Source: a plasmid
Sequence record: NZ_CP035506.1
DNA length: 64,000 nucleotides
Direction: 5' to 3' (one strand)
The notes beneath the pieces were generated by a model that had not been told where the DNA came from, searched no databases, and saw only the letters and a list, made by a program, of their open reading frames with translations. The translations under genes and the position numbers were made by a program. Positions 16,643-54,904 of the stretch are shown here, one piece after another. Position 1 is the first letter of the stretch, and the number at the start of each line of letters is the position of its first letter.

Positions 16643-17502
16643 GCCGTCGTCTCCTCTTCTTCCGGGCCAAGCGCGTTGGCACCGAAGAATACCTGATCTT
16701 CAATAACGTTCTGAACGGTTTCTTCCGTGACCTGTGGGGTTTCGCTGCTCCAGGCGTAAAGCATGCAGAAATCGCACAGTTGGTTGACGAGCCGCGGCAC
16801 GCCGCGCGTGGCGGCATGAATGGCGGTGGCCGCCCCGGGGGTGAATTCCGTCCCCGTGCCCCCGGCCTTCACCAGCCGATGGGCGATGTATCCGGCGACC
16901 GCATCGGCATCCATCGCGTTCAGATGGAAGGAGGCCGCCACCCGCTGCGCGAGCTGGCGCATGTTGGGATGCAGCACCATCGCCTTCAGCTCGGGCTGGC
17001 CGACGAGGATGAGCTGGATCAGCTCGTCCTTGCCGGAGTTGATGTTGGTGAGCAGCCGGAGTTCCTCCAGCCCCTCGATGGAGAGGTTCTGCGCCTCGTC
17101 GAAGATCAGGATCACCCGCCGCCCGGCGGCATATTCGGTGATCAGGAACTCCTGCAGCTTCTGGAACATCTGCACATAGGTCTCGCCCGGCGTGATCGGC
17201 ACGGCGAGCGCGTTCAGCACCCATTGCAGAAGCTCCCCCCGCCCGCCCTGCGCGTTGGAGACGAGACCGATGGTCACGTCCTCCTCCAGCCGGTTCAGCA
17301 GCTCGCGCAGCAGCGTCGTCTTGCCAGAGCCGATCTCGCCGGTGATGAGCGTGATCGGCGCGCGGGACAGGATGCCGAATTCCAGAACCGAGAAGGCGCG
17401 GCGATGCTGGGCCGACCAGTAGAGAAAGGAAGGATCCGGCAGCAGCGTGAAGGGACGCTCCCGAAGGCCGAAGAATTCCGCGTAAAGCTGCTGTGGGGCC
17501 AT
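16639..17502 (-). CDS. ExeA/GspA-like AAA ATPase (the 'secretion ATPase' of PEP-CTERM/exosortase loci).
   Basis: The N-terminus is MAPQQLYAEFFGLRERPFTLLPDPSFLY...LITGEIGSGKTTLLREL, which gives a Walker A, and ILIFDEAQNL gives a Walker B. This pattern is typical of ExeA. The gene is translationally coupled to wzz. Confidence 0.75.
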   Translation of the reverse strand: MAPQQLYAEFFGLRERPFTLLPDPSFLYWSAQHRRAFSVLEFGILSRAPITLITGEIGSGKTTLLRELLNRLEEDVTIGLVSNAQGGRGELLQWVLNALAVPITPGETYVQMFQKLQEFLITEYAAGRRVILIFDEAQNLSIEGLEELRLLTNINSGKDELIQLILVGQPELKAMVLHPNMRQLAQRVAASFHLNAMDADAVAGYIAHRLVKAGGTGTEFTPGAATAIHAATRGVPRLVNQLCDFCMLYAWSSETPQVTEETVQNVIEDQVFFGANALGPEEEETTA

Positions 17503-18071
17503 GAATTGCCTTCAGTTACTCTCGTCCGGACCTGGTCGGTCCCTTGCGGGATGCCTATAGCACTCCGCTCTCAAACAATCACCCTGCAACCGGGGGACGA
17601 AACCCCTCTGTGCAGATCTCTCCAATTTGCGGCAGGATGGGCACAATCCTCCGCCCCGTCGATTATGCCCGCTGCCTGACCGGAGGCCGAGAGTCCAGTT
17701 TCGTCGGTCCGGGGACGACAAGGCAAGAGGCGGTGGGGCATGTTCACGATTATGTTGAAGTCCCTTCGGCGGTTTAGCCGCTTCCGCGGCGACGCTTCAC
17801 CCTGATCTGCGAACAATGTGCGGCAAAGTGAAACAATTCGCAATGCTGCAACTGCACAATCAATGTGCACGTGTGAGAAAAACTGTATTTTCATGTTGTT
17901 GGGGGGTGGACGATTAACATTAATGCCCAAACTCCCTTTGCGGGCGCGAGAAAGAATGGTAAGCATTCTGTTAACGCACCGGCACCGCATATATTGGCAC
18001 GGCAGAATCGTGTTGCTCCACGCTGCAGGCTCTTCCTCCCCCCTGGGAGCCTCGGAAACGGGAACGGACTT
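17503..18071. promoter_or_regulatory. Divergent promoter region between the ExeA-like/wzz/kinase operon and the sugar-transferase/TPR/Wza/OMP/exosortase operon. It is locally AT-rich.
   Basis: A 570-bp non-coding gap between divergently oriented operons. Its GC content is clearly lower than its surroundings, and it contains short palindromes (gtgcac, gttaac). Confidence 0.3.
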
Positions 18072-18758
18072 ATGACTGTACATTTCAATTCCGCTTCGCA
18101 GACAGGCCTTTCTTCCTCCCTCGATCAGGACAATCCCCTCGCCACCCCTTCGGGCATTTACCGGAATGGCGCGAAACGGACGATCGACATCCTCCTCATC
18201 GTCCTGGCGCTTCCCTTCGTCCTTCCCGTGCTTGCCATCATGGCGGGCTTCGTGATGATGGACGGGCATTCCCCCTTCTACCGTCAGGAGCGCGTGGGCC
18301 GCGGCGGGCGTCACTTCAGCCTGCTGAAGATCCGCACCATGGTTCCAAACGCCAAGGAGAAGCTCGAGGAATATCTCGCCTCCGACCCGGCCGCCCGCGC
18401 CGAATGGGACGAGACGCAGAAACTCAAGTCCGACCCCCGCATCACCTTTGCGGGCCGCATCCTGCGCAAGACCTCGCTCGACGAACTGCCGCAGCTCTGG
18501 AACGTGCTCAAGGGCGACATGTCCCTCATCGGGCCGCGCCCCATGATGCCGGAACAGCGCGCGCTCTATCCCGGCCAGGCCTATTATGAGCTGCGTCCCG
18601 GCATTACCGGATCGTGGCAGGTGTCGGACCGCAACGAAGGCTCTTTCGCGGGCCGCGCAAAATTTGATCTCGATTATTACAACTCCCTGTCTTTCGTAAA
18701 GGATTTGTCAATTCTCCTGCGTACAGTGGCTGTTGTTGTGCGGGGGACGGGATACTAA
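18072..18758 (+). CDS. Short 'bacterial sugar transferase' (ExoY/PssA/EpsB-like undecaprenyl-phosphate hexose-1-phosphate transferase). This is the priming enzyme of cluster A.
   Basis: A single N-terminal TM helix plus a PF02397-like catalytic domain (...KIRTM...DELPQLWNVLKGDMSLIGPRP...). The ATG at 18072 is in frame with the track ORF 17994. Confidence 0.75.
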   Translation: MTVHFNSASQTGLSSSLDQDNPLATPSGIYRNGAKRTIDILLIVLALPFVLPVLAIMAGFVMMDGHSPFYRQERVGRGGRHFSLLKIRTMVPNAKEKLEEYLASDPAARAEWDETQKLKSDPRITFAGRILRKTSLDELPQLWNVLKGDMSLIGPRPMMPEQRALYPGQAYYELRPGITGSWQVSDRNEGSFAGRAKFDLDYYNSLSFVKDLSILLRTVAVVVRGTGY

Positions 18759-21296: not shown

Positions 21297-21513
21297 GCAG
21301 CCGTTGCCGAAGATGGCCGCCGCAGAGGGCCACCGGAAAGGAATGACGGGCTTGCCCAGCGGAACTTTGCCGGGCAAGCCTTTTATTCCGGCGGATTTTT
21401 CTTCAGAACCGCGGCAGAAGTGTCGCAGTCCTCGCCTTTTGCGGAGCTCGGCTTTCCACCTGCCCGCAAACCTCCTATCCCTGATCGTAACCATTCCCCA
21501 ACGGGTGCGCCTG

Positions 21514-22167
21514 ATGTTCAGAACCTTGCTCGGGATCTTTGTTTCCCCCCTTTCACGTATCGCGGCGGTCGCCCTTGTGGCGGGCGGCGTCGCCGGCGGT
21601 TTCTCCGCGCCTGCCTCGGCCCAGAGCGGCTATCACCTGCGTCCGGGCGATGTGGTGCAGGTCGAGGTGCTCGACGATCCGAGCCTCAACCGTTCCGTGC
21701 TCGTCCTTCCCGATGGCAGCATCAGCTTCCCGCAGGCCGGAACGCTGCGCGCCAGCGGCCGGACGGTGGAGCAGCTGCGCTCCGCCCTGACGCAGGGCCT
21801 CTCGCCGAACTTCGCTGCGACGCCTACCGTCTATGTCACCGTGGGAAGCGTCGCGCCGCCGCAGTCCGCCGCCGCTGCCGCGGAAGGATTTCCCGTATAT
21901 GTGATGGGAGAAGTTAACGAACCCGGCCGCAAGGACATCAAGTCCGGCACCACGCTGCTGCAGTTCCTGGCCGAGGCCGGTCAGCTCAGCCGCTTTGCCG
22001 CGCGGAATCGGATCGAACTCCACCGTCAGGATCCCCGGACCAAGGCTGCGGCCGTCTATCTCTTCGACCTCGACCATGTGGGGGGTGGCCAGAACCGGAT
22101 CAGCGGCATGACCACCATCACCGAAGGCGATGTCATCATCGTCCCGCAGCGCCGGCTGTTCGAGTAA
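21514..22167 (+). CDS. Small Wza-like polysaccharide export protein (PEP-CTERM-locus export type).
   Basis: Signal peptide MFRTLLGIFVSPLSRIAAVALVAGG...ASAQ, followed by a Poly_export-like domain (GYHLRPGDVVQVEV...) and an SLBB-like C-terminus. The ATG at 21514 is in frame with the track ORF 21238. Confidence 0.65.
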   Translation: MFRTLLGIFVSPLSRIAAVALVAGGVAGGFSAPASAQSGYHLRPGDVVQVEVLDDPSLNRSVLVLPDGSISFPQAGTLRASGRTVEQLRSALTQGLSPNFAATPTVYVTVGSVAPPQSAAAAAEGFPVYVMGEVNEPGRKDIKSGTTLLQFLAEAGQLSRFAARNRIELHRQDPRTKAAAVYLFDLDHVGGGQNRISGMTTITEGDVIIVPQRRLFE

Positions 22168-22171
22168 GCAG

Positions 22172-23653
22172 ATGACCCCTGCCCGTTCCGCATGCCTCGC
22201 TTCCCTCAGCCGGGAGACCGGGCGGCCCCGTGCTGCGGCAGGCTTTCGCCGGCTGCCGCTCGCATTTCTTCTTCTCGCCGGAACGGCCCTTGTGCCTGTG
22301 GAGGCGCCGGCACAGGCAGCAGGCGATCTGCCGAACCCGCTGCTGACGTTCAGCTTTTCGTCCTCACTGCATGTGAGCGACAACTATGACCTGTCGGATG
22401 ATCCGTCAGGAACCACCACCTATGTCGATAACACACTCGGCCTCAGCTACCTGAGCGAGACGGATGTCCAGAAGCTCAGCCTCGCGGCGAGCGGGGTGCT
22501 GCGTCTGGCCGATTATCCGAGCGATGCGACGAACAGCGGCTACCAGACCGATTTCGACAACCAGACCCTCCGCTTCGGCTATACGCTGACGGGGGCGGAC
22601 AGCGAATTGACATCGTCGGCCTATTACAACCGCGCCGACATCGCCTTCTTCGATCCGTTCCAGCTCGTGCAGGAAAATATCGATCTCGAAGCGCAGGATC
22701 TTTCAACCAGCGACGGGTATCGGGAGATGATCCGCGCCAGTGTCGGCTTCCGCACCGGCATGTCCGGGCCGCTCAGCTTCAATGCGGGGCTGAGCGCCTA
22801 CAAGCGGAACTTCCTTGAGACGAGCGACACGAGCTTCGAAGACAACGAAACCTATACGGCGACGGCAGGTTTCGGCTTCCTGATCACGCCGACCACCCGG
22901 CTGACGCTGGACGGGTTGTATCGCGACTATTCCGCCGACGATACGGAGCAGACCGACCGGCAGACCCGCTCGCTCTCCACGGGTGCCGTGCATGAGGTCA
23001 GTACCGGGCTCACGCTCAATGGCTCCATAGGCTATCAGGAGATCGAGAGCGAGAAGACCGATCTCTCCGGCTACCGCGGAACAGAGCGGACGACCGGGGT
23101 CATCGGCACTCTCGGCGCCACGCAGGAGCTGACCAACGGCACGGTCGGAATCAGTTTCGACCAGAGCCAGAATACCTCCGGCAGCCGTTCCACCCTCCAG
23201 GTGTCCCGCGCAATGGACCTGCCGAGCGGCAGCCTTGCGCTCAGCCTCGGCGCCTCGCGGGGCGACAGCGGCAAGACGACCGCCATCGGGTCGATCACCT
23301 ACAATCATGACCTGGAGAATGGGAGCCTTTCCGCACGGCTGTCGCAATCGGTCAGCACCAACAGCGACGACGAAGAGGTGGAGGCGCGCAATTTCCTGCT
23401 CCGGCTATCGCATGAGCTGACCCCGGTTTCGGGTGTTTCGCTGAGCGTAAGCTATGCCGATCTCAACAACCTCCAGGATTCCGGGGGCGACCGGACGCGC
23501 AGTCAGATCCGCGCGGCCTATTCCCATGACCTGACCCGGGACTGGGAGCTTTCGGGCGGTTACGAATATACCCAGCTGGAGCGCCCCGCAGGAACGGCCA
23601 AGGAAAACGCCGTCTTCCTGACCATACAGCGCCAGTTCCTTTTCAGGCCCTGA
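22172..23653 (+). CDS. Putative outer-membrane beta-barrel protein associated with the exosortase locus.
   Basis: A signal-peptide-like segment (RRLPLAFLLLAGTALVPVEAPAQA) is followed by 450 aa rich in S/T/G/Y/D with alternating beta-strand-like periodicity. It sits immediately upstream of the exosortase. Confidence 0.45.
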   Translation: MTPARSACLASLSRETGRPRAAAGFRRLPLAFLLLAGTALVPVEAPAQAAGDLPNPLLTFSFSSSLHVSDNYDLSDDPSGTTTYVDNTLGLSYLSETDVQKLSLAASGVLRLADYPSDATNSGYQTDFDNQTLRFGYTLTGADSELTSSAYYNRADIAFFDPFQLVQENIDLEAQDLSTSDGYREMIRASVGFRTGMSGPLSFNAGLSAYKRNFLETSDTSFEDNETYTATAGFGFLITPTTRLTLDGLYRDYSADDTEQTDRQTRSLSTGAVHEVSTGLTLNGSIGYQEIESEKTDLSGYRGTERTTGVIGTLGATQELTNGTVGISFDQSQNTSGSRSTLQVSRAMDLPSGSLALSLGASRGDSGKTTAIGSITYNHDLENGSLSARLSQSVSTNSDDEEVEARNFLLRLSHELTPVSGVSLSVSYADLNNLQDSGGDRTRSQIRAAYSHDLTRDWELSGGYEYTQLERPAGTAKENAVFLTIQRQFLFRP

Positions 23654-23847: not shown

Positions 23848-25452
23848 ATGACGGCCGCGAACGAGAATTCCCGCTCCTCCCTGGCGGCTGCGCTTCCCTC
23901 GGTGAACGCCCCCGGTTTCATGTGGTTCATTCTGCTTCTGGCCGGGTCGATCCCGATCTTCTGGATCGGCTTCGTCTCGTTGGCGAAGGCCTGGTCCACG
24001 CCGGAATACAGCCATGGGCCGCTCATTCCGCTGATCTCGCTCTACCTCTTCCTGCGGGAGCTGCGGCAGATGCCTCCGCCCGCGGCCGAGGTGCGGGACC
24101 GCTGGCCGGGGCTCCTCGTCATTCTGCTGGGCCTCGTGGTTGCGCTGTTCGGCAACCTCACCCGCATTCCCGACATCGTCACCTATGCGATGATCATCTG
24201 GGTGGGCGGTGTGGTCCTCACCGTCTTCGGCTGGGAGCGGGGCAAGCATCATCAGCTTCCTGTCCTGCACCTGATCTTCATGCTGCCGCTGCCGCAGTTC
24301 CTCTACTGGCACCTGACGATCTTCCTGCAGGGGATCTCGTCGGAGATCGGCGTGTGGTTCGTGCGCCTTGCCGGTGTGCCGGTCTATCTCGAAGGCAATG
24401 TGATCGACCTCGGGGTCTACAAGCTGCAGGTGGCGGAAGCCTGTTCGGGCCTGCGCTACCTGTTCCCGATCCTGAGCTTCACCTATCTCTTCGCCATCCT
24501 CTATCGCGGCCCCTTCTGGCACAAGGCTGTGCTGATGCTGTCGGCCGTGCCGCTCACCGTGCTGATGAACTCCTTCCGCATCGGGGTGATCGGGGTGCTG
24601 GTGAACTCCTATGGTATCGAGCATGCCGAAGGGTTCCTGCACTTCTTCGAAGGCTGGGTGATCTTCATCGCCTGTATCGGCATCCTGTTCCTGATGGCGA
24701 TGGGCCTGCAACGGCTGACGCGGAACCCGCTGCCGCTGGCGGAGGCGATCGACCTCGATACCCGCGGCATGGCGCCGCTCATGGGGCGCATCCTGTCGAT
24801 CCGCCCCTCGAAGGCGCTGGCGGCGGGGGCACTGCTGACGCTTGCCCTGTCGGCGGGCTGGGCGCTGCATGGCGGGCCGCAGGCCCAGCAGATGGACCGG
24901 GAGCCTTTCGCGCTCTTCCCCCGGCAGTTCGGGGAATGGTCGGGCGCGGCCTCCGGTCTCGACCCGGAGATCGAGCGGGTGCTGGCCGCGACCGATTACA
25001 TGAACGCCGCCTATACCGCACCGGGCGAGAAGGACTATGTGCATTTCTTCTCGGCCTATTACGAGAAGCAGACGGAAGGCGCCGGCATCCACTCGCCGGA
25101 AGTCTGTCTCCCGGTCGGGGGCTGGGAGATCTTCACCTTCCAGCCGCACGAGGTGAGCTTCCCGGGAACGCCCTACGGTACCTTCACCGTGAACCGGGCG
25201 GTAATCCAGAAAGGGTTGTCCAAACAGCTCGTCTATTACTGGTTCGAGCAGCGCGGCAAGCGGATGACCAACGATTATCTCGCCAAGGCCAGCGTCGTCT
25301 GGGACAGCCTGACCCGCGGCCGTACGGACGGGGCGCTGGTGCGCTATGTCACCCCGATCGGCACGAACGAGAGCGAGGCCGACGCCGATGCCCGCATTCA
25401 GCGGCTGATGGCGAAAAGCCTGAACGTCCTGCCCCGCTACATTCCGTTCTGA
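23848..25452 (+). CDS. Exosortase fused to a C-terminal EpsI-family domain. It is predicted to be VPLPA-CTERM-specific (XrtD-like).
   Basis: The N-terminal 300 aa form a polytopic membrane domain with the conserved exosortase residues: Cys in [12 protein letters not shown], Arg in NSFRIGV, and an HFFEGW region. The C-terminal 230 aa form a soluble EpsI-like domain. RBS is GAGGA. A single VPLPA-CTERM gene lies in the same locus. Confidence 0.8.
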
Positions 25453-25496: not shown

Positions 25497-25784
25497 TGCG
25501 TTGCAGCATGTCGGGCGCAGCGAATCCCCCTTGTTCGGACACAACTTTCCAAAACGAAAGTATTCAACAGTTCACCTGCAAGCAGGTGGATGAAAGAGAA
25601 TTTTCAATCCTAAGACGAAGATGATTGCCTCTCCCATTTCGCGCCTCACGATAAAAGTTATTAAAAATAACACCTTTACGGCGAGCGCATCGGGCTATTC
25701 CAGCGAACAAGTTCAAGAAATTCCGATCTTTTGTGCCATATCGGGGACAAAGGCGCTCTCTTAGGGTCAGGACTCTTTCTCGGG

Positions 25785-26000
25785 TCATAGCCAGAACATG
25801 ACGGTTGCTGCGAGAGCGATGGCGGAAAGGAAGACCTTGGGGCACCTGTCGTAGCGGGTTGCGACGCGGCGCCAGTCCTTCAATCGCCCGAACATGATCT
25901 CAATCCTGTTGCGGCGTCTGTAGCGGCGCTTGTCATACTTGATGGGTATGCCGCGCGATTTCCGGCCGGGGATGCAGGGTTTTATCCCCTTGTCCTTCAA
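25785..26000 (-). pseudogene. C-terminal fragment of the IS5-family transposase orfB, displaced by the Tn3 insertion.
   Basis: The 71-aa sequence is identical to the C-terminus of the intact transposase at 55106-55738. Confidence 0.8.
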
Positions 26001-26081
26001 CGCTTCTCTGAACCAGTCGGCATCATAGCCGCGGTCCGCCAGCAGCCAGGGGGCTGATGCCGGAGGGGGCAGGATCCTACG

Positions 26082-28967
26082 TTAAGCCCTTTTCGGCCAC
26101 TTGTATTCGCCAGTGAGCAGGACATGGGCCCAACCGAGGGGCGAGATGTGCGCCAGAAGGTTCGGCGAACAGTCCAGGCCTTCGCGGCGGCGGCTGGCGA
26201 CGGCCTGGCCGAGATGCTTGGTGTTCCAGTAGATGACGATCGCGGCAAGAAGGTTCAGCCCGGCCATGCGGAAGTGCTGGGCTTCGGAGGTGCGGTCCCT
26301 GATCTCGCCCTGGCGGCCGATGCGGAGAGCGTTCTTCAGCGCGTGGTGGGCTTCGCCCTTGTTCAGGCCGATCTGGGCGCGGCGCTGCATGCCGGCATCA
26401 AGCAGCCAGTCGATGATGAAGAGCGTCCGTTCGACCCGTCCGATTTCCCGCAAGGCGACCGCCAGTTCATGTTGCCTCGGGTAGGACGCGAACTTCCGCA
26501 GGAGTTGGCTCGGCGGGATGGCTCCTGACGCCATGGTCGCCACGCTGCGCAGGATATCGGGCCAGTTCGCGGCGATGAGGGACTGCCTGATCTTGCCGCC
26601 GATCAGCCCTTTCAGCTCTTTCGGGCAGGCGGCCGGATCGAAGAGGTAGAGGCGCTTGGATGGCAGGTCGCGGATGCGGGGGATGAACTGGAAGCCCAGC
26701 AGGGCGGTGACGGCGAAGACGTGGTCGGTGAAGCCGCCAGTATCGGCATATTGCTCCCGGATCTTCTGCCCGGCGCTGGTCATCAGCAGGCCATCGAGGA
26801 TGTAGGGCGCTTCGTTCACGGTAGCCGGGATGGTCTGTGTGGCGAAGGGACCGAACTGGTCGGAGACATGGGTGTAGGCTTTCAGCCCGGGCTCATGGCC
26901 GTACTTGGCGTTGATCAGATTCATCGCCTCGCCCTGGCGTGTCGTCGGGAAGAACTGCCCGTCGCTCGATGCGGTCTGTCCGGCGCCCCAGAACTGCGCC
27001 ATCGGCAGTGCCGACTGCCCGTCGATCACCATGGCCAGGGCGCGGGCCATCGCCTCGCTTTCGACATGCCAGCGCGACAGGCGGGAAAGCTGGAAGAAGT
27101 CGTGCGTGTTCGTGGCCCCGGCCATCTTGCTGAGGCCGAGATTCAGCCCCTCGGCAAGCAACACGTTCAGCAGGCCGATCCGGTCCCTGCACGGCGCGCC
27201 GGTGCGCAGATGCGTAAAGGCCTCGGTGAAGCCAACCTCCGCATCCACTTCGAGCAGGAGATCGGTGACCCTGACTTCCGGCAGGCGGCCATAGAGGTCG
27301 AGCACCAAGGCGTCGGCTTCCTCGGGAACCGCCGCAGCCAGCCGGTCGATTTTCAAGGTGCCGTCCTCGATGGAGCCTCCCGGCATGGTCCCGGCCCTAG
27401 CCGCACGCGCCAGGCGATGCAGGGCGTCAGCCATTCGGGCTTTGCGGTCGGCCAGCCAGGTTTCCGGCTCGAACGGCATGGCCAGCCTCGGCGTGGCGCG
27501 GGCGACGTCGACCGGGACCAGCGCTTCCTTCAGGTCGCCATACCTGCGCGAATGCGCCAGCCAGATATCACCGGAACGGAAGGCTTCGCGCAGATGGAAC
27601 AGGACCGCGACCTCCCATATCCGGTGCTCATCTTCGCCATCCAGGTGGCGGTGCCACTTCGAGGCGCGGCGCAGAAAGGTCAGCGGCCGGACGTCTGGTG
27701 TCGCCGTGCCCGCGATGACCGCGCTTGCCGCCAGCAGCGGCTCCGCCACGGGCGCGGCACAGATGTCGAGTACCCGCAGCATGCGCGGCGCATAACGCCG
27801 GAAGCGATGATATCCGTGACCGACATGCGCCAGCGGATCAGCGGCAAACGTGTCGGTCAGTTGAGCGGCCGTGGCGACAAGCCCCTTGAGGGATATCCAG
27901 CCGCCGGCATTGCCGACGGCCTCTTCGAGAGAGGCCCGATCCTCATGCGCTTCCAGGAGCGCCGCTCCCAATGTCCTGAAGGATTGCAGGGTGTCCTTCA
28001 GCGCCGATCTGGCATCGTCCATCCGGGCGTCACATCGTGACTTCGCCTCGCGCCAGGTCTTGCCCACGATGCGGTCATGGGTCTCGACGACAGCGTCAGC
28101 AATGGCGCAGCGCCATTCCAGCGCGCAGACCGCAAGGATGGCGAGGCGGCGGTCACCCGAGATATCCCTCAGATCGCCTGCGAAGTATCGCTCTCCCTGC
28201 CGACGAAGGCGGGCAACGCGGTGTGGCGGCACATCCGCCAGAATGCCCCGGTCCAGCGCCAGCGCGCGCAGGTATTCCAGCCGGTCCAGAAGGCGGTTCA
28301 TGTCGGCCGAATTCTGCCCGGTTTCGAACTGGCGCAGCCAGACGAACCGCGTGACCGAGCCGCCCGCATCTTCGGTCAGGAGGGCATCGAGACGTGCTCG
28401 CATGGCATCGTCCAGCCGGCCACCGATCCGGGCGTCGATCCGGCGCTCGGCCGCGACAAGCGCCTCCGCGCAAAGCCGCTCGATGACCGTGATCCCCGGG
28501 AAGATGGTCTGGGTTGCCCGGCACTGCTCGACGAAGCGCCGTGCCAGATCCTCGTTCGACCGGGCGGCTTCGGCGGCATCCTCAAGCCATATTTTCAGGT
28601 CACGTGCCCCACGGCCCGCGAACATCTTGTAGCCATAGATCTCGCGCAAGGCGGCCAGGTGCTCATGCCGGGTCTCTTCCCGGGTCGCATACCCGGCCAG
28701 ATCGTCAGGCCTCATCCCGAGCTGCGCTGCCAGAAAGCGCGTGACCGCCAGCGGAATGACCTCGCCCGGCGCCAGCAGCCGCCCCGGATACCGAAGCGCG
28801 CAGAGCTGCAGGGCGAAACCGAAGCGGTTGTGCGGACGACGACGGGCGCGGACGATCTCCAGATCGTCGTCTGCCAGCGTGTAGTGGCGCAGCATCGACG
28901 CGTCATCGGTCGGCAGGTCGAACAATGCCGCCCTTTGCCGGGCGGTCAGGATGCTGCGTCTTGGCAT
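26082..28967 (-). CDS. tnpA: Tn3-family transposase TnpA (961 aa).
   Basis: Its size and N-terminus (MPRRSILTARQRAALFDLPTDDASMLRHYTLADDDLEIV...) are typical of Tn3 TnpA. The gene sits inside the GGGG-type IRs. Confidence 0.9.
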   Translation of the reverse strand: MPRRSILTARQRAALFDLPTDDASMLRHYTLADDDLEIVRARRRPHNRFGFALQLCALRYPGRLLAPGEVIPLAVTRFLAAQLGMRPDDLAGYATREETRHEHLAALREIYGYKMFAGRGARDLKIWLEDAAEAARSNEDLARRFVEQCRATQTIFPGITVIERLCAEALVAAERRIDARIGGRLDDAMRARLDALLTEDAGGSVTRFVWLRQFETGQNSADMNRLLDRLEYLRALALDRGILADVPPHRVARLRRQGERYFAGDLRDISGDRRLAILAVCALEWRCAIADAVVETHDRIVGKTWREAKSRCDARMDDARSALKDTLQSFRTLGAALLEAHEDRASLEEAVGNAGGWISLKGLVATAAQLTDTFAADPLAHVGHGYHRFRRYAPRMLRVLDICAAPVAEPLLAASAVIAGTATPDVRPLTFLRRASKWHRHLDGEDEHRIWEVAVLFHLREAFRSGDIWLAHSRRYGDLKEALVPVDVARATPRLAMPFEPETWLADRKARMADALHRLARAARAGTMPGGSIEDGTLKIDRLAAAVPEEADALVLDLYGRLPEVRVTDLLLEVDAEVGFTEAFTHLRTGAPCRDRIGLLNVLLAEGLNLGLSKMAGATNTHDFFQLSRLSRWHVESEAMARALAMVIDGQSALPMAQFWGAGQTASSDGQFFPTTRQGEAMNLINAKYGHEPGLKAYTHVSDQFGPFATQTIPATVNEAPYILDGLLMTSAGQKIREQYADTGGFTDHVFAVTALLGFQFIPRIRDLPSKRLYLFDPAACPKELKGLIGGKIRQSLIAANWPDILRSVATMASGAIPPSQLLRKFASYPRQHELAVALREIGRVERTLFIIDWLLDAGMQRRAQIGLNKGEAHHALKNALRIGRQGEIRDRTSEAQHFRMAGLNLLAAIVIYWNTKHLGQAVASRRREGLDCSPNLLAHISPLGWAHVLLTGEYKWPKRA

Positions 28968-29132
28968 GGCGATCTTTCAGGAAATCGTGATGGACGACCG
29001 TCCGTAAGGGGATCGGTGAGCGGACATGTGTCGAGAGGGTTGGGAGCGGTAAGGAAACCGCACTCCATCCTATCTCGTATAGATGGTACGATTTGATTCG
29101 CACATGCCGCCCCTTATCCGTACACTCGCTAC
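28968..29132. promoter_or_regulatory. Putative res site and divergent promoters between tnpA and tnpR.
   Basis: The position between the divergent tnpA and tnpR genes is the standard Tn3 organisation. Individual subsites were not resolved. Confidence 0.35.
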
Positions 29133-29720
29133 ATGACCGTGACCAAAATTGGCTATGCCCGCTGCTCCACCGACCGTCAGGACCTGACAGCGCAACGTGC
29201 TGCCCTTGCAGAGCTTGGGGTCACCGTAGACCGCATCTACACGGACCATGGCCTGACCGGCACGAACCGCGCCCGCCCCGGTCTCGACCAAGCGCTTGCT
29301 GCTGTGCGAGAAGGCGACGTGCTGGTCGTGCCGAAACTCGATCGCCTTGCGCGCTCGGTCCCGGACGCACGGGCCATCGCGGATCAGTTGGAAAAGAAGG
29401 GCGTCAAGCTTGCCCTCGGCGCATCGGTCTACGATCCGACCGACCCGATGGGAAAGATGTTCTTCAACATCCTCGCCACCTTCGCCGAGTTCGAGGCCGA
29501 CCTCATCCGCATGCGTACCCGCGAAGGTATGGCCATCGCCCGAGCCAGGGGCAAGCTTCGGGGAAAGCAGCCGAAACTCTCGGAAAAACAACAAAAAGAA
29601 CTGAGCCGGATGCACGCCTCCGGCGAATATTCCATCAGCGATCTCGCTGAGCTCTTTGCCGTCTCAAGACCGACCGTCTACAGGACGCTGCAGCGAAATC
29701 CGGCCAAAACTCAGCCTTAG
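29133..29720 (+). CDS. tnpR: Serine recombinase/resolvase TnpR.
   Basis: The N-terminal catalytic motif is GYARCSTDRQD (with the catalytic Ser). A C-terminal HTH is also present. Confidence 0.9.
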   Translation: MTVTKIGYARCSTDRQDLTAQRAALAELGVTVDRIYTDHGLTGTNRARPGLDQALAAVREGDVLVVPKLDRLARSVPDARAIADQLEKKGVKLALGASVYDPTDPMGKMFFNILATFAEFEADLIRMRTREGMAIARARGKLRGKQPKLSEKQQKELSRMHASGEYSISDLAELFAVSRPTVYRTLQRNPAKTQP

Positions 29721-29752
29721 CGTAGGATTCTGCCCCCTCCGGCATCAGACCC

Positions 29753-30264
29753 CAGCCAGTCCGCCTTTGGCAAGCTGCCCAGAAGTGCTGCGGCACCCGT
29801 GTAGTCACTGACCTGACCTGCGGTCACGAAGAAGCGGATTGGCCGGCCATCAGCATCGGTGACGGCGTGCAACTTGGTGTTCATGCCGCCCTTGGTTCGG
29901 CCGATCAATCGGCCCCTCTGATCGTTGGCTCCCCCTTTTTCGCTCGCAGGCTGGTCGCCGTGCGATGCGCCTTGAGATAGGTCGCGTCGATCATCACCGT
30001 CTCCGGAACTGCCGACTCTGCCGCCAGGCCGAGCATCATCCGGGCGAAGACACCCCTGTCGCTCCACCGCTTCCAACGGTTGTAGAGCGTCTTCGACGGG
30101 CCATACTCCTTGGGAGCGTCGCGCCATCGCAAACCATTGCGATTAATGAAGATAATGCCGCTGAGAACGCGCCGGTCATCAACACGCGGCTTGCCATGGC
30201 TCTTGGGAAAGAAGGGCTCCAGGCGCGACATCTGCGCCTCCGTCAGCCAAAAGAGGTTGCTCAT
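29753..30264 (-). pseudogene. IS5-family transposase: orfA is intact, and the N-terminal part of orfB is truncated at the Tn3 junction.
   Basis: orfA (29905-30264) is identical to the orfA of copy 2. orfB matches copy 2 up to ...LPKADWL and then reads into the Tn3 IR. Confidence 0.8.
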
Positions 30265-30474
30265 TCATCGGTCTCCTTGCGGAGCCTGAATCATGCTGAA
30301 AGCGCAAGATCAATGGGTCCTGACCCTAAGCGCAAGCAGCTGAGTTTTATTAATAAACTAGGAAATATTAAAAAAACCACTGTCACGCCGCATCGCAACA
30401 TGTTAATAATTGACATAAGCGTGATGAACTCGGCTCCGGCCCCTGAGCCGATTGGCAGAATTATGGAGAGAAAC

Positions 30475-31026
30475 ATGTTGAAGAAGGTTGTTACGGCTGC
30501 CCTCATCGCCGCGGCCTCCGCTGCCTCGGCAAATGCTGCTGTCATTTATGCAAGCAGCGTGGTTTCGGCTAAACAGAAGGGCTATGTTGCGCCGGTGCGC
30601 AGCAACCCGATCGCAGCAACGGGTGCCGAGGATGGGAGCTTCTACTCCCTCGGCTTCGGTGGCAGCATCGTGCTCGGCTTCTCGAGCCTGGTGAGCGGCG
30701 CTGGGAAGGTGTTCGAAGTCACCAACCTCCCGCGGGAAACCTATATCGAGAGCGCGATCTTCTCGGTCAGCCTCGACGGAAAATCCTGGACCACTCTGGG
30801 AGAATACTCCAACCAGGTCAGCTCGCTCTATTCGGCGACGCCGTTCCTCTTCCTCAAGGTGGAGGATACCAGCCCGGTGATCGCCGGCCATGGCCGTGAC
30901 GGCTATGACATCGACGCCATCGGCTTCGAAGAATATGTCGCCGCGGTTCCGCTTCCGGCGGCGGGCCTGCTGCTGATCGGTGGTCTGGCCGGCCTGGGTG
31001 CCATGAAGCGCCGCAAAGCGGCCTGA
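30475..31026 (+). CDS. VPLPA-CTERM sorting-domain protein, the predicted exosortase substrate. It is a small secreted protein with an unknown N-terminal domain.
   Basis: Signal peptide MLKKVVTAALIAAASAASANA. The C-terminus is ...EEYVAAVPLPAAGLLLIGGLAGLGAMKRRKAA: a VPLPA motif, a hydrophobic helix and a basic cluster. RBS GGAGAG is 5 nt upstream. An alternative ATG is at 30463. Confidence 0.75.
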   Translation: MLKKVVTAALIAAASAASANAAVIYASSVVSAKQKGYVAPVRSNPIAATGAEDGSFYSLGFGGSIVLGFSSLVSGAGKVFEVTNLPRETYIESAIFSVSLDGKSWTTLGEYSNQVSSLYSATPFLFLKVEDTSPVIAGHGRDGYDIDAIGFEEYVAAVPLPAAGLLLIGGLAGLGAMKRRKAA

Positions 31027-31057
31027 GCCTCAAGAAACGATTTTCGGAACGCCGGTG

Positions 31058-31090
31058 CGATTGCGCCGGCGTTTTGCTTTCCGGGTTGCT
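31058..31090 (+). terminator. Probable terminator after the VPLPA-CTERM gene.
   Basis: Stem GCCGG, 9-nt loop, stem CCGGC, then gttttgcttt. Confidence 0.4.
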
Positions 31091-31216: not shown

Positions 31217-31828
31217 ATGCGCGCCATGCCGGTGGTGCTCGTGCTGTTCGTGGCCTGCCTGATCCCGGAACTCATTCTTTCCGGAGCTGATTACGGGCTT
31301 TGGGGCGATCCCGGCTGGCGGCTCTGGGCCTGGCAGCATGGCGGCTTCTGGACGGGGCTTCTGGGCAACTGGCGGCCCAACTATGCCGCGCAACCCTGGC
31401 TCATGTTCCTGACCTACGGCTTCCTGCACGGGGGGGTGATCCATTTCGGGGTGAACATGCTCACCCTGTTCTCTCTTGCGCCACCGCTGGTGGAGCGGAT
31501 GGGACAGGGACGGTTCCTGCTGCTCTACATGGCATCCATGATCGGTGGCGGTCTGGGCTTTGCGCTGCTGTCCCAGTCTCCGCAGCCGATGGTGGGGGCG
31601 TCGGGGGCGCTGTTCGGGCTGGCGGGCGCGGTCATGGCGCTGAGCTGGCAATATCTGCGGGCACGGGGGGAGAGCCTCAGGCCGGTGATCCGGTCCCTTC
31701 TGTGGCTTGCCGGGCTGAACCTGGTCCTCTGGTGGGCGATGAGCGGGATGTTGGCCTGGGAAACCCATCTGGGTGGTTTCGTCGTCGGCTGGCTCATGGG
31801 CCTGTGGCTGGTGAGGGATGGGCGATAG
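31217..31828 (+). CDS. Rhomboid-family intramembrane serine protease.
   Basis: About 6 TM helices. The GxSG motif is MVGASGALFGLAG, and the conserved His is in a later TM (AWETHLGGFVVGW). The first ATG in frame with the track ORF 31055 is used as start. Confidence 0.7.
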   Translation: MRAMPVVLVLFVACLIPELILSGADYGLWGDPGWRLWAWQHGGFWTGLLGNWRPNYAAQPWLMFLTYGFLHGGVIHFGVNMLTLFSLAPPLVERMGQGRFLLLYMASMIGGGLGFALLSQSPQPMVGASGALFGLAGAVMALSWQYLRARGESLRPVIRSLLWLAGLNLVLWWAMSGMLAWETHLGGFVVGWLMGLWLVRDGR

Positions 31829-31900
31829 CTGCATTGCAGCGACTTGTCATGCTCCGGCTCTGCTGGCAGGCTGCCATGACGACTTCGGAGAGATATCTTT

Positions 31901-32930
31901 GACGAAACATGTATTGGTCACTGGCGGAGCAGGGTATATCGGCTCCCATGCCTGCAAGGCATTACAGCGCGCCGGCTATGTGCCCGTCACCTACGATAGC
32001 CTGATTACCGGCTGGCAGCAGGCGGTGCGCTTTGGCCCGTTCGAGCAGGGCGACCTCGCCGACAGGGCGCGGCTGGATGAGGTCTTTGCCAGGTGGAGGC
32101 CGGTCGCGGTGATGCATTTCGCTGCCCTCTCCCAGGTGGGAGAGGCGATGCGGGAGCCGGGGAAATACTGGCGCGGCAATGTCGCTGCCTCCCTCACCCT
32201 GCTGGAGGCGGCAGTGGCGGCGGGCTGCCTCGACGTGGTGTTCTCCTCCACCTGCGCGACCTATGGCGATCAGGACGGCGTGGTACTGACGGAGGAGACC
32301 CCGCAGGCGCCGATCAACGCCTATGGCGCCTCCAAGCGCGCGATCGAGGACATGTTGCGCGACTTCGGCGCGGCCTACGGACTGCGCTCAGTGATCTTCC
32401 GCTACTTCAACGTGGCGGGAGCCGATCCGGAGGCGGAGGTGGGCGAGTTCCACGACCCCGAGACGCATCTGATCCCGCTGATCCTTGAGGCGATCTCCGG
32501 CAGGCGCCCGGCGCTCACCGTCTTCGGCACCGATTACCCGACGCGGGACGGCACCTGCATCCGCGACTATGTGCATGTCTCGGACCTGGTGGATGCCCAT
32601 GTGCTCGGCGTGAAGGCGCTGGAAGCGGGACGGGTGGCGGATGGCGGGGTGGAGGTCTTCTGCCTCGGCTCCGGCAGCGGTTTCTCCGTCCGCGAGGTGA
32701 TAGAGGAGGCCCGCCGCATCACCAATCGCGAGGTGCCGGTGGTCTTGGGGGAGCGGCGCGCGGGCGATGCCGTGGCGCTGGTCTGCGGCAGCGAGAAGGC
32801 GGGGCGCGAACTGGGCTGGACCCCGGCCCGCTCCGACCTCGGCACCATGATCGAGGATGCCTGGCGGTCCTATCGCACCGTGGGCTGGGACAGGACGGTG
32901 GCGGGTGGCCCGGCGCTGGAGAATGCCTGA
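31901..32930 (+). CDS. galE: UDP-glucose 4-epimerase.
   Basis: Start codon TTG at 31901, with GGAGAG 8 nt upstream. The N-terminus is KHVLVTGGAGYIGSH (Rossmann fold) and YGASK forms the catalytic YxxxK. About 340 aa. Confidence 0.85.
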
Positions 32931-33216
32931 GCCGGGCGCGTGATGCTGCTGCGCCCCTCCGGCACGACCCTGCCCGGAGACGGCGAAAGAGCGACGGGCC
33001 CCGCCACGGGGCATGGCCCCTCCCGTCCGGTCGGTGCACCCGGTTCCATGCCGCCAAGCAGCCTCTCCTGCCAGCAGAGCTCCGCCGAAGTGCGGGCAGG
33101 GGATGTCACAATCGCGATTGGCTGTGCCGGCGCGGGTTTTCTTGGCGGGATGACGTGTATATTCACCTCCCGAGGGGCGGGACACCCGCGGGATTCGGAA
33201 CAATAAAAGGAACGAC

Positions 33217-34293
33217 ATGCGCCAGCATGCCATCTTCTTCTGCCTCCCGCTGATCCTGACTGCCTGCACGGATGGTTTCGTCTATTTCCCCGTCGATGAA
33301 AGCGGCCAGGAGCGTGCGGCGCAGGAGGAGAATGTCGATATCATCCGTCTGACCCCGGATAATATCGCAAGCTTCGCTCAGCCCACCAAGGGCCATGTCG
33401 CCACCAGCATGCCGCGGGGCGGGCGCTGGAACTATCTTGTCGGGCCGGGCGACATTCTTGACATCATCGTCTTTGATCATCCGGAGCTGACGCTCCCTGC
33501 CGGGCCGCAGCGGGCGGCGGAGGATTCCGGTTTTCGCGTGCAGGCGGACGGCAGTTTCTTCTACCCCTTCATCGGCCAGGTCCGGGCCGAGGGCCGCCCG
33601 CTCGAGCAGATCCGCGAGGAGGTGACGCGGCGGCTGGCCGAATACGTCCCGGAGCCGCAGCTCGAGGTGCGTGTCGCCGCCTTCAACTCCCAGAGCGTCG
33701 TCGTCTCGGGCGAGGTGAAGATGCCGCAGCGGCTGGAGATGACGACCAGTCCCCGCACGCTGCTGGAAGCGATCAGCGAGGCGGGCGGTTTCACCGAGAA
33801 TGCCGACATGCGCCGTGTCCGCGTCCAGCGTGGCAGCCAGTTCTATGACGTGGATGTGGAGGGCTATCTCTCCGCCGGAATGGCCGCCAACAACCCGATG
33901 CTCCGGTCGGGGGATGTGGTCTCCGTGCTGCGCAAACGCGCGCAGGAGGCCTATCTGATGGGCGAGATATCGGAGGCGGGGCCGGTCGACCTGTCGCTCG
34001 ACACCGTCTCTCTCACCCAGGCGCTGGCGCTGCAGAAGGGTGTGCGCTCCACCCGGTCCGATGCGCGCGGCGTCTTTGTCTTCCGCAACGTGCGGGGGCG
34101 CATGACCGTCTTCCAACTCGAGACGAGTTCCCCCACCGGGCTGCTGCTCGGCACGCGCTTCGTGCTGGAGCCGGGCGATGTCGTCTATGTCACGCGCAAC
34201 CCGCTGCAACGCTGGAACGACACGATCTCCAAACTGCTGCCGACGGTGCAGGCGACGAATGTGGTCGCGGCGACCGACAATGCGCTGAACTGA
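33217..34293 (+). CDS. wza: Wza-family polysaccharide export outer-membrane lipoprotein.
   Basis: Lipobox LILTAC|TDG. The Poly_export domain (GPGDILDIIVFDHPEL) is followed by SLBB repeats. Confidence 0.8.
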   Translation: MRQHAIFFCLPLILTACTDGFVYFPVDESGQERAAQEENVDIIRLTPDNIASFAQPTKGHVATSMPRGGRWNYLVGPGDILDIIVFDHPELTLPAGPQRAAEDSGFRVQADGSFFYPFIGQVRAEGRPLEQIREEVTRRLAEYVPEPQLEVRVAAFNSQSVVVSGEVKMPQRLEMTTSPRTLLEAISEAGGFTENADMRRVRVQRGSQFYDVDVEGYLSAGMAANNPMLRSGDVVSVLRKRAQEAYLMGEISEAGPVDLSLDTVSLTQALALQKGVRSTRSDARGVFVFRNVRGRMTVFQLETSSPTGLLLGTRFVLEPGDVVYVTRNPLQRWNDTISKLLPTVQATNVVAATDNALN

Positions 34294-34307
34294 TCCTGGA
34301 AGAGCCC

Positions 34308-34784
34308 ATGATTTCGAATGTGATGGTCGTCTGCGTCGGCAATATCTGCCGTTCCCCGCTGGGAGAGCGCGTGCTGCAGGCGGGTCTGCCGGGGGTCAGA
34401 GTGACTTCGGCGGGGATCGGGGCGCTGGTCGGCCATGCCGCGGATCCGCTGGCCGCGGAGGTGGCAGCGGAGCATGGCATCTCGCTCGAAGGCCATGTGG
34501 CGCGGCAGTTCACCGCCGAACTGGGCGGCACGCAGGATCTGATCCTGGTCATGGAGCCGGGGCACAAGGCGGAAATCACCCGCCTGGCCCCCGCGCTGTC
34601 GGGCCGCGTGATGCTGTTCGATCAATGGACCGGCGCCAAGGGGATCGCCGACCCTTATCAGCGGTCGCGGGAATTCCACGAGGCCGTGCATGGGGAAATC
34701 GCGACGGCGGCGCAGGGCTGGATCGCCCGGCTCGGCCCCCGGCCTAGTTCCCGCCCAGGTTCAGGTTCCGGAGCCGGGGCATGA
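34308..34784 (+). CDS. wzb: Low-molecular-weight protein-tyrosine phosphatase.
   Basis: P-loop CVGNICRSP (C-X5-R), plus a downstream DP motif. Confidence 0.85.
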   Translation: MISNVMVVCVGNICRSPLGERVLQAGLPGVRVTSAGIGALVGHAADPLAAEVAAEHGISLEGHVARQFTAELGGTQDLILVMEPGHKAEITRLAPALSGRVMLFDQWTGAKGIADPYQRSREFHEAVHGEIATAAQGWIARLGPRPSSRPGSGSGAGA

Positions 34785-36957
34785 GCCCGAAGCCCCCGCG
34801 CGAGGCGGAAGCGAAGGAAGTCGATCTCGCCGCGCTGGCCGAGGAGCTCTGGGCCGCCAAGGGCAAGGTCGCTGGATTTACCGCGGCCGGGCTGCTCGCG
34901 GGGGTTCTCTACATCTTCCTCACCGCCCCCACCTATGAGGCGGATGCGCTGATCCAGCTGGAACCGAAGACCGGCAACCTCGCCGTGCCCTCGGGGCTTT
35001 CCGATCTGATGGGCGGTGGTCAGACCCAGGCCACGACCGAACGGGAACTGATTATGTCGCGCCTGGTGCTGAACCAGGCGGTGGCGGATGTGCATCTGGA
35101 ATGGACAGCCCGGCCCCGGCAGTTCCCGGTGATCGGCTATGCGCTGCGGTCCCGCGCGCTGCCCTTCAAGGGAATGAGCTTTCTGCGGCCCTATGCCCAG
35201 GGGGGGAGCGGATCCGCCTCGATCTGCTTGCCGTGCCGCCGCACTGGACGGGAGAAACCTTCACCCTCACCAAGGGCGACGGGGATACCTTCCGCGTGAC
35301 CACCCCCGACGGCCGCCTGTTCGAGGGCCGCGTGGGGGAAGTCCTGCAGGATACCGATATCGGCTTCGCCCTCCGTGTGGGGGAATTGGAAGGCCAGCCG
35401 GGACGGCAGTTCGAGATCGCCCACCGCGAGACGCAGGATGTCATCGAAGGGCTTCGCCGGTCCCTGTCGGTTGCCGAAAAGACCCGCGATTCCGGCATCC
35501 TGGAGTTGTCCTTCACCTCCCGCGACCGGGTGGAGGCGCAGCGCACGCTGGCCGCCATCGCGCAGGCCTATGTCCGCCAGAACGTGGAGCGCTCTGCCGC
35601 GCAGGCAGAAAACAGCCTTGGCTTCATCCAGCAGCAGATCCCCAAGGCCCGGCAGGACATGCTGGATGCACAGGACCGGCTGAACACCTATCGCGAGTCG
35701 CAGCGTTCCGTCGATATCCAGTTCGAGACACAGAACCTGCTGACCCAGATCGGCACGCTGGAGACCGAACTTCGTGAACTCCGCTCGCAGGAGGACGAGG
35801 TCGCCGATCTCTATACCAAGAACCACCCGCGCTACCGCCAGCTTCTGGCGCAGCGGGAGCGGCTGGAGGATCAGCTCAACAAGCTGCGGGGGAGATCGGC
35901 ACCCTGCCCGACACGCAGCGGGAGATCCTGAACTACACCCATGACGTGGAAATGGCGCAGGAGATCTATACCGAGCTTCTGACCCGCGCGCAGGAAGTGG
36001 ATGTCATGCGCGCCTCCACCGTCGGCAATGTGCGGATCGTCGATCCGGCAGAGACCCAGATCCGTCCCGTGGCGCCCCGCAAGGCGCGCGTTCTCGCTCT
36101 TGCCCTGTTGCTGGGCGGTATGCTGGGGGCGGGCTATGTGCTGCTGCGGAACTGGCTGCGGAAGGGTATCCAGAGCGCTTCCGACCTGGAGGACATGGGT
36201 CTCACGGTCTTTGCCACCATCAACAAGAGCCCGGATGCCGAAAGGCCGGAAGGCGGGCGCGGCGGGCGCGTTCCGCTGCTGGCGGCAACTAAGCCCACCG
36301 ACCTTGCCGTGGAGGGGCTGCGTTCGCTCCGCACGGGGCTGCATTTCGGGATGCTGGACGCCCCCTCCCGCACGCTGGCCATCACTTCCACCGCGCCGGG
36401 TGCGGGCAAGAGCTTCCTGTCGGCCAACTTCGCCGTCGTCTCCGCCCAGGCGGGACAGTCGGTCTGCCTGATCGACGCGGACATGCGGCGCGGGCGCCTG
36501 CGGCGGATGTTCGACGTGCCCCGCGATGCACCGGGCTTTGCCGATATCCTGACCGGACAGGCGCGGCTTGAGGATGTGCTGGTGCCAACCGGGGTGCAGG
36601 GGCTGGTTTTCCTGCCTGCAGGCAAGTTCCCCCCGAACCCGGCGGAATTGCTGCTCCGCCCGACGCTCCCGGCGCTCATCCGCGAGCTGGACCAGCGGTT
36701 CGATCTGTCGATCTTCGACTGCCCCCGGTTCTGGCGGTCACCGATCCGGTCATCATCGCCAAGGCAGCGGGGGCGAGCCTGCTCGTCGCCCGCTTCGACG
36801 AGACGCCGGAGGGCGAGATCCGTGCGGCTCAGGCCGCGATGGAGGCGGCAGGCACCGGCTTCAAGGGCGCGGTTTTCAATGCCTATGACCACCGCAAGGC
36901 CAAATCGGCGCAGAGCTATTCCTATCGCTATGAATACAAGGCGAAGGAGGAGTAACC
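34781..36957 (+). pseudogene. wzc: Wzc-type chain-length determinant/tyrosine autokinase, broken by three frameshifts. Each one is at a G- or C-homopolymer run.
   Basis: Three overlapping track ORFs (34781-35299, 35101-35931, 35946-37091) together reconstruct an N-terminal Wzz domain, a coiled-coil, a Walker A (TAPGAGKSF) and a terminal Tyr cluster SYSYRYEY, ending at the TAA at 36955-36957. The frame changes fall at GGGGGGG (about 35200), GGGGG (about 35890) and CCCCC (about 36725). Confidence 0.75.
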
Positions 36958-37383
36958 TCCCTTTCGCCCGGAAAATGAAAGGCAAAAGATCGCCGATGGC
37001 GGCACAGGAGCAACATGGTCTGATGTGCCTGGGCCGCAAAACGATAAACATGGGTCGGCGACCGTTGCCGTTTGCCAATCATGAGCGATAATGATGGGCG
37101 TAGTTCGTGAGCCGTGCAGGACAATCGAATGAGACTTTACACCGGCAGGGCCTCCATGAATGCCTCCGGGTAGACGGTCCGGAGGGATGAGCCGGCGCCG
37201 GATGAAAAGGGCGGTCGTTCCTCCCCTTCCTTCAGGGCACCTGTCAGACTTGGGACAGCCCTGGAGGCAGTCCTCCACGATCCAGCCTCCTCGGAGGCCT
37301 TCTTTCCGGGCTGTCGCGGCCCGGTGCAGCGGGCAGTATTTCCAATGTGGCGGGATATCACCCGCCCACCTCAAGGTTCCGGC

Positions 37384-54836: not shown

Positions 54837-54904
54837 GATGGAGAACTCCCGAAATTGGGTAGACGTACTGAAAACCTCGTTAAGTTTGCACCCGCTTATC
54901 CCTT

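Follow-up and report, generated by a model that had tools for sequence, protein, structure and literature searches.

Rhomboid gene and its predicted product

We analysed a window of 64 kb of high-GC DNA from a single replicon (plasmid record NZ_CP035506.1), in which a gene for a rhomboid intramembrane serine protease follows a gene for a cargo protein with a VPLPA-CTERM sorting signal. The rhomboid is co-located with a polysaccharide module made up of AAA ATPase and Wzz-like, sugar transferase, TPR, export and barrel genes, which in part of the loci also includes xrtD, the gene for the VPLPA-CTERM-specific exosortase. The reading frame extends from an ATG at 31217 to a TAG at 31826–31828 and encodes 203 amino acids (aa), the minimal form of the family with six transmembrane (TM) helices. 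An alternative ATG at 31142 would yield a 228-aa form, and NCBI records use both starts; homologues of the protein carry N-terminal extensions of approximately 10–30 residues with poor conservation. The identical protein in NCBI is a plasmid protein of Haematobacter massiliensis.

The product belongs to the Pfam family Rhomboid (PF01694, MEROPS S54), with a score of 101.5 bits against a cutoff of 22.6. The catalytic serine, Ser129, lies in the G-A-S-G motif of TM4, within the segment MVGASGALFGLAG, and the histidine of the dyad, H184, lies in TM6 (THLGGFVVG). Further family motifs comprise HxxxN in TM2 (H76/N80), E18 in TM1 and W34-R35 in loop 1. S129, H184, H76/N80 and W34-R35 were either invariant or reached at least 90% conservation in alignments of 18, 32 and 92 sequences, the largest of which consists of full-length family representatives clustered at 50% identity; across these 92 representatives, E18, R35, H71, H76, N80, G-A-S-G, H184 and GG..G were near-universal. 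The initial annotation, which had recognised a rhomboid by its GxSG serine and transmembrane histidine, is confirmed by these results.

An AlphaFold2 model of the protein (predicted local distance difference test score of 90.4; predicted template modelling score of 0.88) has the six-helix rhomboid fold, with TM1 beginning at about residue 4 of 203. When the model was compared with the PDB using Foldseek, the top 32 matches were all E. coli GlpG, with template modelling scores (TM-scores) of 0.68 and 0.76. A sequence search of the PDB returned iRhom proteins only (E of ~1e-3 to 1e-6), and GlpG surfaced by fold comparison alone. The ratio of nonsynonymous to synonymous substitution rates between H. 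massiliensis and H. missouriensis was 0.12 for the rhomboid, 0.14 for the cargo gene and 0.09 for xrtD. Taken together, Pfam membership, motifs, predicted fold and substitution rates indicate a catalytically intact, minimal six-helix serine protease under purifying selection.

VPLPA-CTERM cargo and its exosortase

The cargo gene ends exactly 190 bp before the rhomboid start and on the same strand, as the initial annotation had described. Its product scored 39.7 bits against the NCBIfam VPLPA-CTERM model TIGR03370 (cutoff 25.35), which identifies it as a VPLPA-CTERM target, and VPLPA-CTERM is the sole C-terminal sorting signal found in the window. VPLPA-CTERM cargo proteins are single-pass proteins with a Gly-rich helix and an N-out/C-in orientation after signal-peptide removal; the 30 distinct tails collected from rhomboid loci follow the consensus V-P-[LV]-P-A-A-G-L-L-L. 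The initial annotation had seen the cargo and missed its cognate sortase, XrtD, which is encoded in the same window and scored 710 bits against TIGR04152 (cutoff 400), with a fused EpsI domain (135.8 bits). Since the cognate sortase is adjacent to the cargo, the question becomes why a rhomboid is present too.

Between the cargo stop codon and the rhomboid there is a GC-rich, terminator-like hairpin with a 10-bp stem, AACGCCGGTGCG-ATTG-CGCCGGCGTT, followed by the T-tract TTTGCTTT. Folding of 74 nt gave −30.8 kcal/mol (z = −2.74); H. missouriensis has an identical hairpin within differing flanks. A consensus terminator scan did not call this hairpin, which was assessed by folding and conservation; it is likely an intrinsic terminator or attenuator between the cargo and the rhomboid.

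Classification and relatives of the rhomboid

The relation to rhombosortases, which the initial annotation had raised, was judged by curated hidden Markov model (HMM) cutoffs. The rhombosortase equivalog TIGR03902 was still the best NCBIfam match of the window rhomboid, at 30.4 bits against a cutoff of 84, so membership in that family was not borne out. The same model was the best NCBIfam match for 90 of the 92 family representatives; their best E-value, 1.7e-15, should fall under the 84-bit cutoff, the comparison here being one of E-values only. The GlpG models TIGR04239 and NF008155 gave 15.7 and 19 bits (cutoffs of 250 and 335), and the protein is without the N-terminal cytoplasmic domain that spans ~90 aa in GlpG, in agreement with the earlier view that it is not a housekeeping GlpG. 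By curated models, the rhomboid is neither a rhombosortase nor a GlpG. No rhombosortase was annotated among 167 weak plasmid matches. NCBIfam holds no dedicated model for the XrtD-linked rhomboid, and PGAP gives all members the generic rhomboid name.

An exhaustive family search recovered 78 clusters (50% identity) at E ≤ 1e-30 and 848 at E ≤ 1e-10, and in all retrieved data the XrtD-linked family was confined to Rhodobacterales. A related Paracoccus clade (~35% identity) occupies housekeeping chromosomal contexts, represented by loci L097 (10001–10684) and L098 (10001–10618), and within 10 kb of it neither XrtD nor polysaccharide genes were present; it serves as a negative control for the XrtD link. 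In L097 the rhomboid directly follows thioredoxin-TPR, LON-substrate-binding and Trm112p genes, which lie ~5 kb away in L098, and the single member of this clade in the motif table is without E18 and R35. A bootstrapped distance tree placed 54 of 58 XrtD-linked sequences in one clade excluding Paracoccus; with a bootstrap value of 23, we claim neither monophyly nor a single origin for this clade.

A fusion of rhomboid and XrtD (a Rosetta-stone protein) was considered for three rhomboid-containing proteins and rejected. P0129 and P0161 (746 and 698 aa) have an unrelated C-terminal extension of ~500 aa without a Pfam match, and P0139, which joins a truncated rhomboid to an FGE-sulfatase domain, may result from faulty gene calling.

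Rhomboids of a different type were observed on Agrobacterium and Paracoccus yeei plasmids (L100, 1363–2073; L102, 5863–6570). On one side they have a gene for a complex-I subunit, and on the other side genes for ClpP, TrxC and a cation:proton antiporter, a context that looks like a stress-resistance island.

Gene order in Rhodobacterales

In named genomes beyond Haematobacter, the module has a Wzz-like gene and an AAA ATPase gene on one strand; the other strand carries, in order, genes for the sugar transferase, the TPR protein, the export protein, the barrel protein, XrtD in part of the genomes, and the rhomboid. Of the 12 named genera covered, at least 8 have the rhomboid as the last gene of the operon, frequently at a spacing of −13 to 30 bp, and it is probably co-transcribed with the XrtD–polysaccharide module. 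XrtD directly precedes it, with gaps of 6–111 bp, in Defluviimonas/Albidovulum, Actibacterium, Pseudorhodobacter and contig L005 (15 bp in Defluviimonas aquaemixtae, 28 bp in L005 and 6 bp in Albidovulum inexpectatum); in Pseudorhodobacter turbinis, where the rhomboid is 33% identical to that of the window, the order is cargo, xrtD, rhomboid. The barrel gene is the immediate upstream neighbour in many genera, with gaps of −13 to 155 bp in Roseobacter denitrificans, Thioclava, Rhodovulum sp. P5 (where the two genes overlap by 13 bp), Jannaschia CCS1, Jannaschia W003 and Stagnihabitans. In Aliiroseovarius and Palleronia the rhomboid lies elsewhere within the same polysaccharide region.

A further exosortase, XrtE, which combines an exosortase with an Rce1-like CPBP protease and belongs to the VPEID-CTERM system, was observed in loci L009 (12349–13923) and L012 (14991–16580). 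A few kb lie between it and the rhomboid of Rhodovulum sp. P5, and likewise between it and the XrtD of Alloyangia pacifica, so that two exosortase systems coexist on some plasmids.

A genome-contig scan with a single rhomboid protein query recovered three Haematobacter loci. H. massiliensis CCUG 47968 (L002) and H. missouriensis (L003) have the uninterrupted order xrtD, cargo, rhomboid. Haematobacter genomosp. 1 (L001) carries a different insert of 3.25 kb (5773–9023) at the site of the window insertion; it contains a DDE transposase and, on the opposite strand, a second VPLPA-CTERM gene. The cargo gene of Haematobacter occupies a variable slot between xrtD and the rhomboid, and the spacer ahead of the rhomboid acts like a hotspot for cargo gain.

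A metagenome scan with an 18-sequence alignment query yielded 80 loci at 49–95% identity, in which module proteins were mapped by tblastn and VPLPA-type tails by a pattern search; the 54 loci with at least 1 kb upstream of the rhomboid were assessable. The immediate same-strand upstream gene encoded XrtD in 16 of these, the barrel protein in another 16, a VPLPA-CTERM cargo in seven and the TPR protein in four (43/54 altogether). None of these genes was the immediate neighbour in the remaining 11, eight of which have system genes elsewhere in the locus. At least one system gene was present in 48 of the 51 loci flanked by 3 kb or more. In locus L045 the genes follow the same order as in Haematobacter (xrtD, cargo, rhomboid), and the passenger of its 330-aa cargo has no similarity to that of the window; its close relative L067 has an acyltransferase in the cargo slot. 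The slot ahead of the rhomboid is thus variable, and cargo adjacency is recurrent and not invariant; the passenger domains of rhomboid-adjacent cargos are unrelated to one another. Conservation of the rhomboid beside VPLPA-CTERM genes, the synteny on which the initial annotation had focused, therefore holds for a minority only (7/54 metagenome loci and Haematobacter), while its conservation beside the XrtD system stands.

Co-occurrence with XrtD on plasmids

A plasmid database was searched with two tblastn queries, one set of results being the Rhodobacterales plasmids that bear the rhomboid family. There were 16 of these, and 15 carry xrtD on the same plasmid; in the 16th strain xrtD is found on a sister replicon, so that all 16 strains are XrtD-positive. 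Conversely, 24 plasmid records contain xrtD. One of them, NZ_CP061940.1, is 24 kb long and bears the label of a Bacillus velezensis plasmid; its xrtD is Rhodobacterales-like (59.6% identity) and in three pieces, and the record is probably mislabelled or a contaminant contig. The other 23 comprise 15 plasmids with the rhomboid, one with the rhomboid on a sister replicon and seven without a rhomboid on the same plasmid, among them a Paracoccus yeei plasmid with a lone xrtD.

Other features of the window

The module genes of the window, together with the downstream genes and mobile elements, are listed in Table 1. A nested insertion separates xrtD from the cargo and rhomboid genes: an 858-bp IS5-type insertion sequence is split by a 3.7-kb unit of the Tn3 family (26050–29752), and an intact, identical 858-bp copy of the IS5-type element is present at 54904–55761. 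The nested insertion is specific to the window strain, being absent from L002 and L003. The wzc gene, which follows the rhomboid on the same strand, is an intact open reading frame of 736 aa in L001 and L002, and the broken window copy is either a strain pseudogene or an assembly error.

Table 1. Coordinates of the rhomboid gene and of neighbouring features in the 64-kb window.
Feature	Coordinates	Strand	Remarks
Wzz/GNVR chain-length protein	15131–16642	−	divergent pair with AAA ATPase; conserved in module
AAA ATPase	16639–17502	−	divergent pair with Wzz/GNVR; conserved in module
Bac_transf sugar transferase	17994–18758	+	first gene of plus-strand operon
PrsT-like TPR-repeat protein	18801–21296	+	TIGR02917, 229.5 bits, under cutoff of 312
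Polysaccharide export protein	21238–22167	+	Poly_export/SLBB type; module member
Outer-membrane barrel gene	22130–23653	+	~460–507 aa, conserved; annotated outer-membrane beta-barrel in Jannaschia
xrtD, exosortase with fused EpsI domain	23848–25452	+	TIGR04152; 534 aa
Nested mobile-element insertion	25762–30329		separates xrtD from cargo and rhomboid
Tn3-family tnpA	26082–28967	−	
Tn3-family resolvase	29133–29720	+	
VPLPA-CTERM cargo	30475–31026	+	TIGR03370; 183 aa; signal peptide, passenger of ~135 aa, tail VPLPAAGLLLIGGLAGLGAMKRRKAA
Terminator-like hairpin	31049–31080	+	between cargo stop and rhomboid
Rhomboid intramembrane serine protease	31217–31828	+	Pfam, motifs, predicted fold; 203 aa, minimal six-TM form
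Downstream genes, galE to wzc	31818–37091	+	follow rhomboid
galE	from 31818	+	true start probably near 31902
wza-like export gene	33217–34293	+	
wzb phosphatase	34308–34784	+	
wzc tyrosine kinase	34781–37091	+	three broken frames in window

Proposed role of the rhomboid in the XrtD system

The juxtaposition of the rhomboid and the XrtD system is strongly supported as functional. Coincidence, one of the options offered by the initial annotation, does not agree with the conservation of the rhomboid in an XrtD/exopolysaccharide-export module across genera, and we regard the protein as very probably a true component of the XrtD system. The best explanation as a whole, to which we assign a probability of roughly 0.55, is that the rhomboid is a conserved, non-universal accessory intramembrane protease of the Rhodobacterales XrtD/VPLPA-CTERM–exopolysaccharide system. 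The plasmid data, where the rhomboid implies XrtD and XrtD does not imply the rhomboid, fit an accessory component and not an independent sortase.

Genomic context suggests that the protease may act on VPLPA-CTERM anchors, a plausible assignment that we hold with somewhat less than even confidence. Rhomboids usually prefer single-pass substrates with an N-out/C-in orientation, and the VPLPA-CTERM proteins were the sole proteins of this kind found in the loci by a crude hydropathy scan; their C-terminal anchor helix is for this reason the putative substrate. Bacterial rhomboids favour a hydrophobic P4, a small P1 and a hydrophobic P2' residue, and a candidate cut between LPAA and GL in the consensus tail would fit this preference. 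Two variants can be envisaged: the rhomboid would clear the transmembrane stub left by XrtD, or it would cleave unsorted cargo and release it. Stub clearance would parallel XrtE, which is present on the same plasmids and in which the exosortase domain (Exosortase_EpsH) is fused to an Rce1-like intramembrane protease of the CPBP type. In its most specific form, which we put forward tentatively and consider rather doubtful, XrtD sorting would be a two-protease pathway where a dedicated, rhombosortase-like rhomboid cuts the VPLPA-CTERM anchor, as a stub or intact, within the membrane.

Several observations weigh against the assignment of the rhomboid to the XrtD system as an accessory protease. 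About one-third of the xrtD plasmids are without a rhomboid on the same replicon (7/23, or 8/24 with the mislabelled record), so the rhomboid must be dispensable or substitutable; Loktanella salsilacus and Alloyangia pacifica have no same-plasmid rhomboid despite otherwise complete modules. Conversely, the rhomboids of Rhodobacter sp. CZR27 and of locus L048 lie among polysaccharide genes without xrtD nearby. The distance tree is poorly resolved, with weakly supported deep branches. In Haematobacter, the conserved terminator-like hairpin parts the cargo and the rhomboid, and co-transcription of the two genes is therefore not required; they may be transcribed separately. Finally, it is genomic context alone that links the protease to the VPLPA-CTERM helix.

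The main rival, a different and rather unlikely role, would be regulation of polysaccharide assembly by cleavage of a membrane component, such as the Wzx flippase, a PCP chain-length protein or a glycosyltransferase. The rhomboid is always embedded among polysaccharide genes, and those directly beside it in Palleronia, Aliiroseovarius, Rhodobacter CZR27 and L048 are of the glycosyltransferase, acyltransferase or flippase type and not XrtD. Such a function would resemble that of Haloferax volcanii RhoII, whose loss truncates the S-layer glycan and for which the flippase Agl15 is a proposed substrate, and that of human RHBDL4, which processes oligosaccharyltransferase subunits (both reviewed in PMC9263693). 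However, the tightest and commonest neighbours of the rhomboid are XrtD and the export/barrel genes and not flippases or transferases, XrtD is present in every rhomboid-bearing strain of the plasmid set, and the hydropathy scan singled out the cargos as the only single-pass proteins of the loci.

It is improbable that the rhomboid is a rhombosortase-type sortase for VPLPA-CTERM, alternative or parallel to XrtD. The preference of nearly all family members for TIGR03902, the minimal six-TM size of ~200 aa, the same as in rhombosortase, and the position of cargos with unrelated passengers directly upstream, in Haematobacter and seven metagenome loci, would all be expected of such an enzyme; Haft and Varghese described the same adjacency pattern for rhombosortase and single targets (PMC3237569). 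Nevertheless, the scores of the window rhomboid and of the family lie under the curated cutoff, and the rhomboid of the plasmid set never occurs without XrtD, whereas some XrtD plasmids have no rhomboid. The initial annotation had listed an alternative sortase among its options; an enzyme that takes the place of XrtD is unlikely.

Least probable is a general membrane quality-control enzyme (GlpG/YqgP-like) hitch-hiking in a mobile polysaccharide island: the housekeeping contexts of the related Paracoccus clade, the plasmid-borne, insertion-sequence-rich locus and the XrtD loci without a rhomboid would suit it, but a passenger gene is not expected to keep the operon-end position described above at 31–60% identity, in named genera as in 43/54 metagenome loci, with gaps that overlap or measure just 6–30 bp.

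Comparison with known systems

A rhomboid subfamily dedicated to an exosortase system appears to be a new link, for which we found no paper or NCBIfam model. The full-text literature gave no description of a rhomboid linked to XrtD, VPLPA-CTERM or PEP-CTERM, although an earlier mention in the 2012 exosortase/archaeosortase paper is possible, and neither the rhombosortase paper (PMC3237569) nor the myxosortase preprint mentions it. Very few bacterial rhomboids have known natural substrates and roles, and events after exosortase cleavage are essentially unstudied; the link described here indicates a natural function for one such enzyme. An exosortase-tied subfamily offers tractable tests in culturable Roseobacter denitrificans, Jannaschia, Rhodovulum and Haematobacter, and speaks for a family-specific annotation in place of the generic "rhomboid family intramembrane serine protease". 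In a two-protease pathway, if true, an exosortase and a rhomboid would for the first time be seen to share their substrates, and an alphaproteobacterial rhomboid would gain a defined class of natural substrates. Alongside XrtE, the exosortase-tied rhomboid subfamily hints that pairing with a second intramembrane protease may be frequent among exosortases.

Rhombosortase (RrtA, TIGR03902) and its GlyGly-CTERM system resemble the present case in the minimal six-helix rhomboid of ~200 aa and in a genomic tie to tripartite C-terminal signals (motif, transmembrane helix, basic tail), with the target gene sometimes adjacent (PMC3237569). They differ in that the signal associated with the window rhomboid, VPLPA-CTERM, already has its own sortase, XrtD; the window family does not stand alone, its co-occurrence with an exosortase being constant, and, in the data retrieved, it is restricted to one bacterial order.

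XrtE of the VPEID-CTERM system is likewise an exosortase with an unrelated second intramembrane protease, found in polysaccharide loci of the same bacteria. Its partner is a glutamic protease of the CPBP/Rce1-like type and is fused to it, whereas the serine rhomboid described here is encoded by a separate gene, in about two-thirds of XrtD loci. In Alloyangia, XrtE lies beside XrtD and there is no rhomboid at that place.

With E. coli GlpG, the window rhomboid shares the fold (at the TM-scores given above and 20–22% identity), the WR, HxxxN and GxSG motifs and the TM6 histidine. It differs from GlpG in having no N-terminal cytoplasmic domain, in its low HMM scores and in its genomic context.

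Lastly, the window module is a Rhodobacterales counterpart of the XrtA/PEP-CTERM exopolysaccharide locus (EpsH, EpsI, PrsT, export, chain-length and ATPase genes). We know of no rhomboid listed among the components of the XrtA locus. The two share a PrsT-like TPR protein, a pepcterm_export-like protein, an AAA ATPase, a Wzz-like protein, a sugar transferase and an exosortase with EpsI; the window proteins match the XrtA-system models under their cutoffs, and the exosortase is XrtD.

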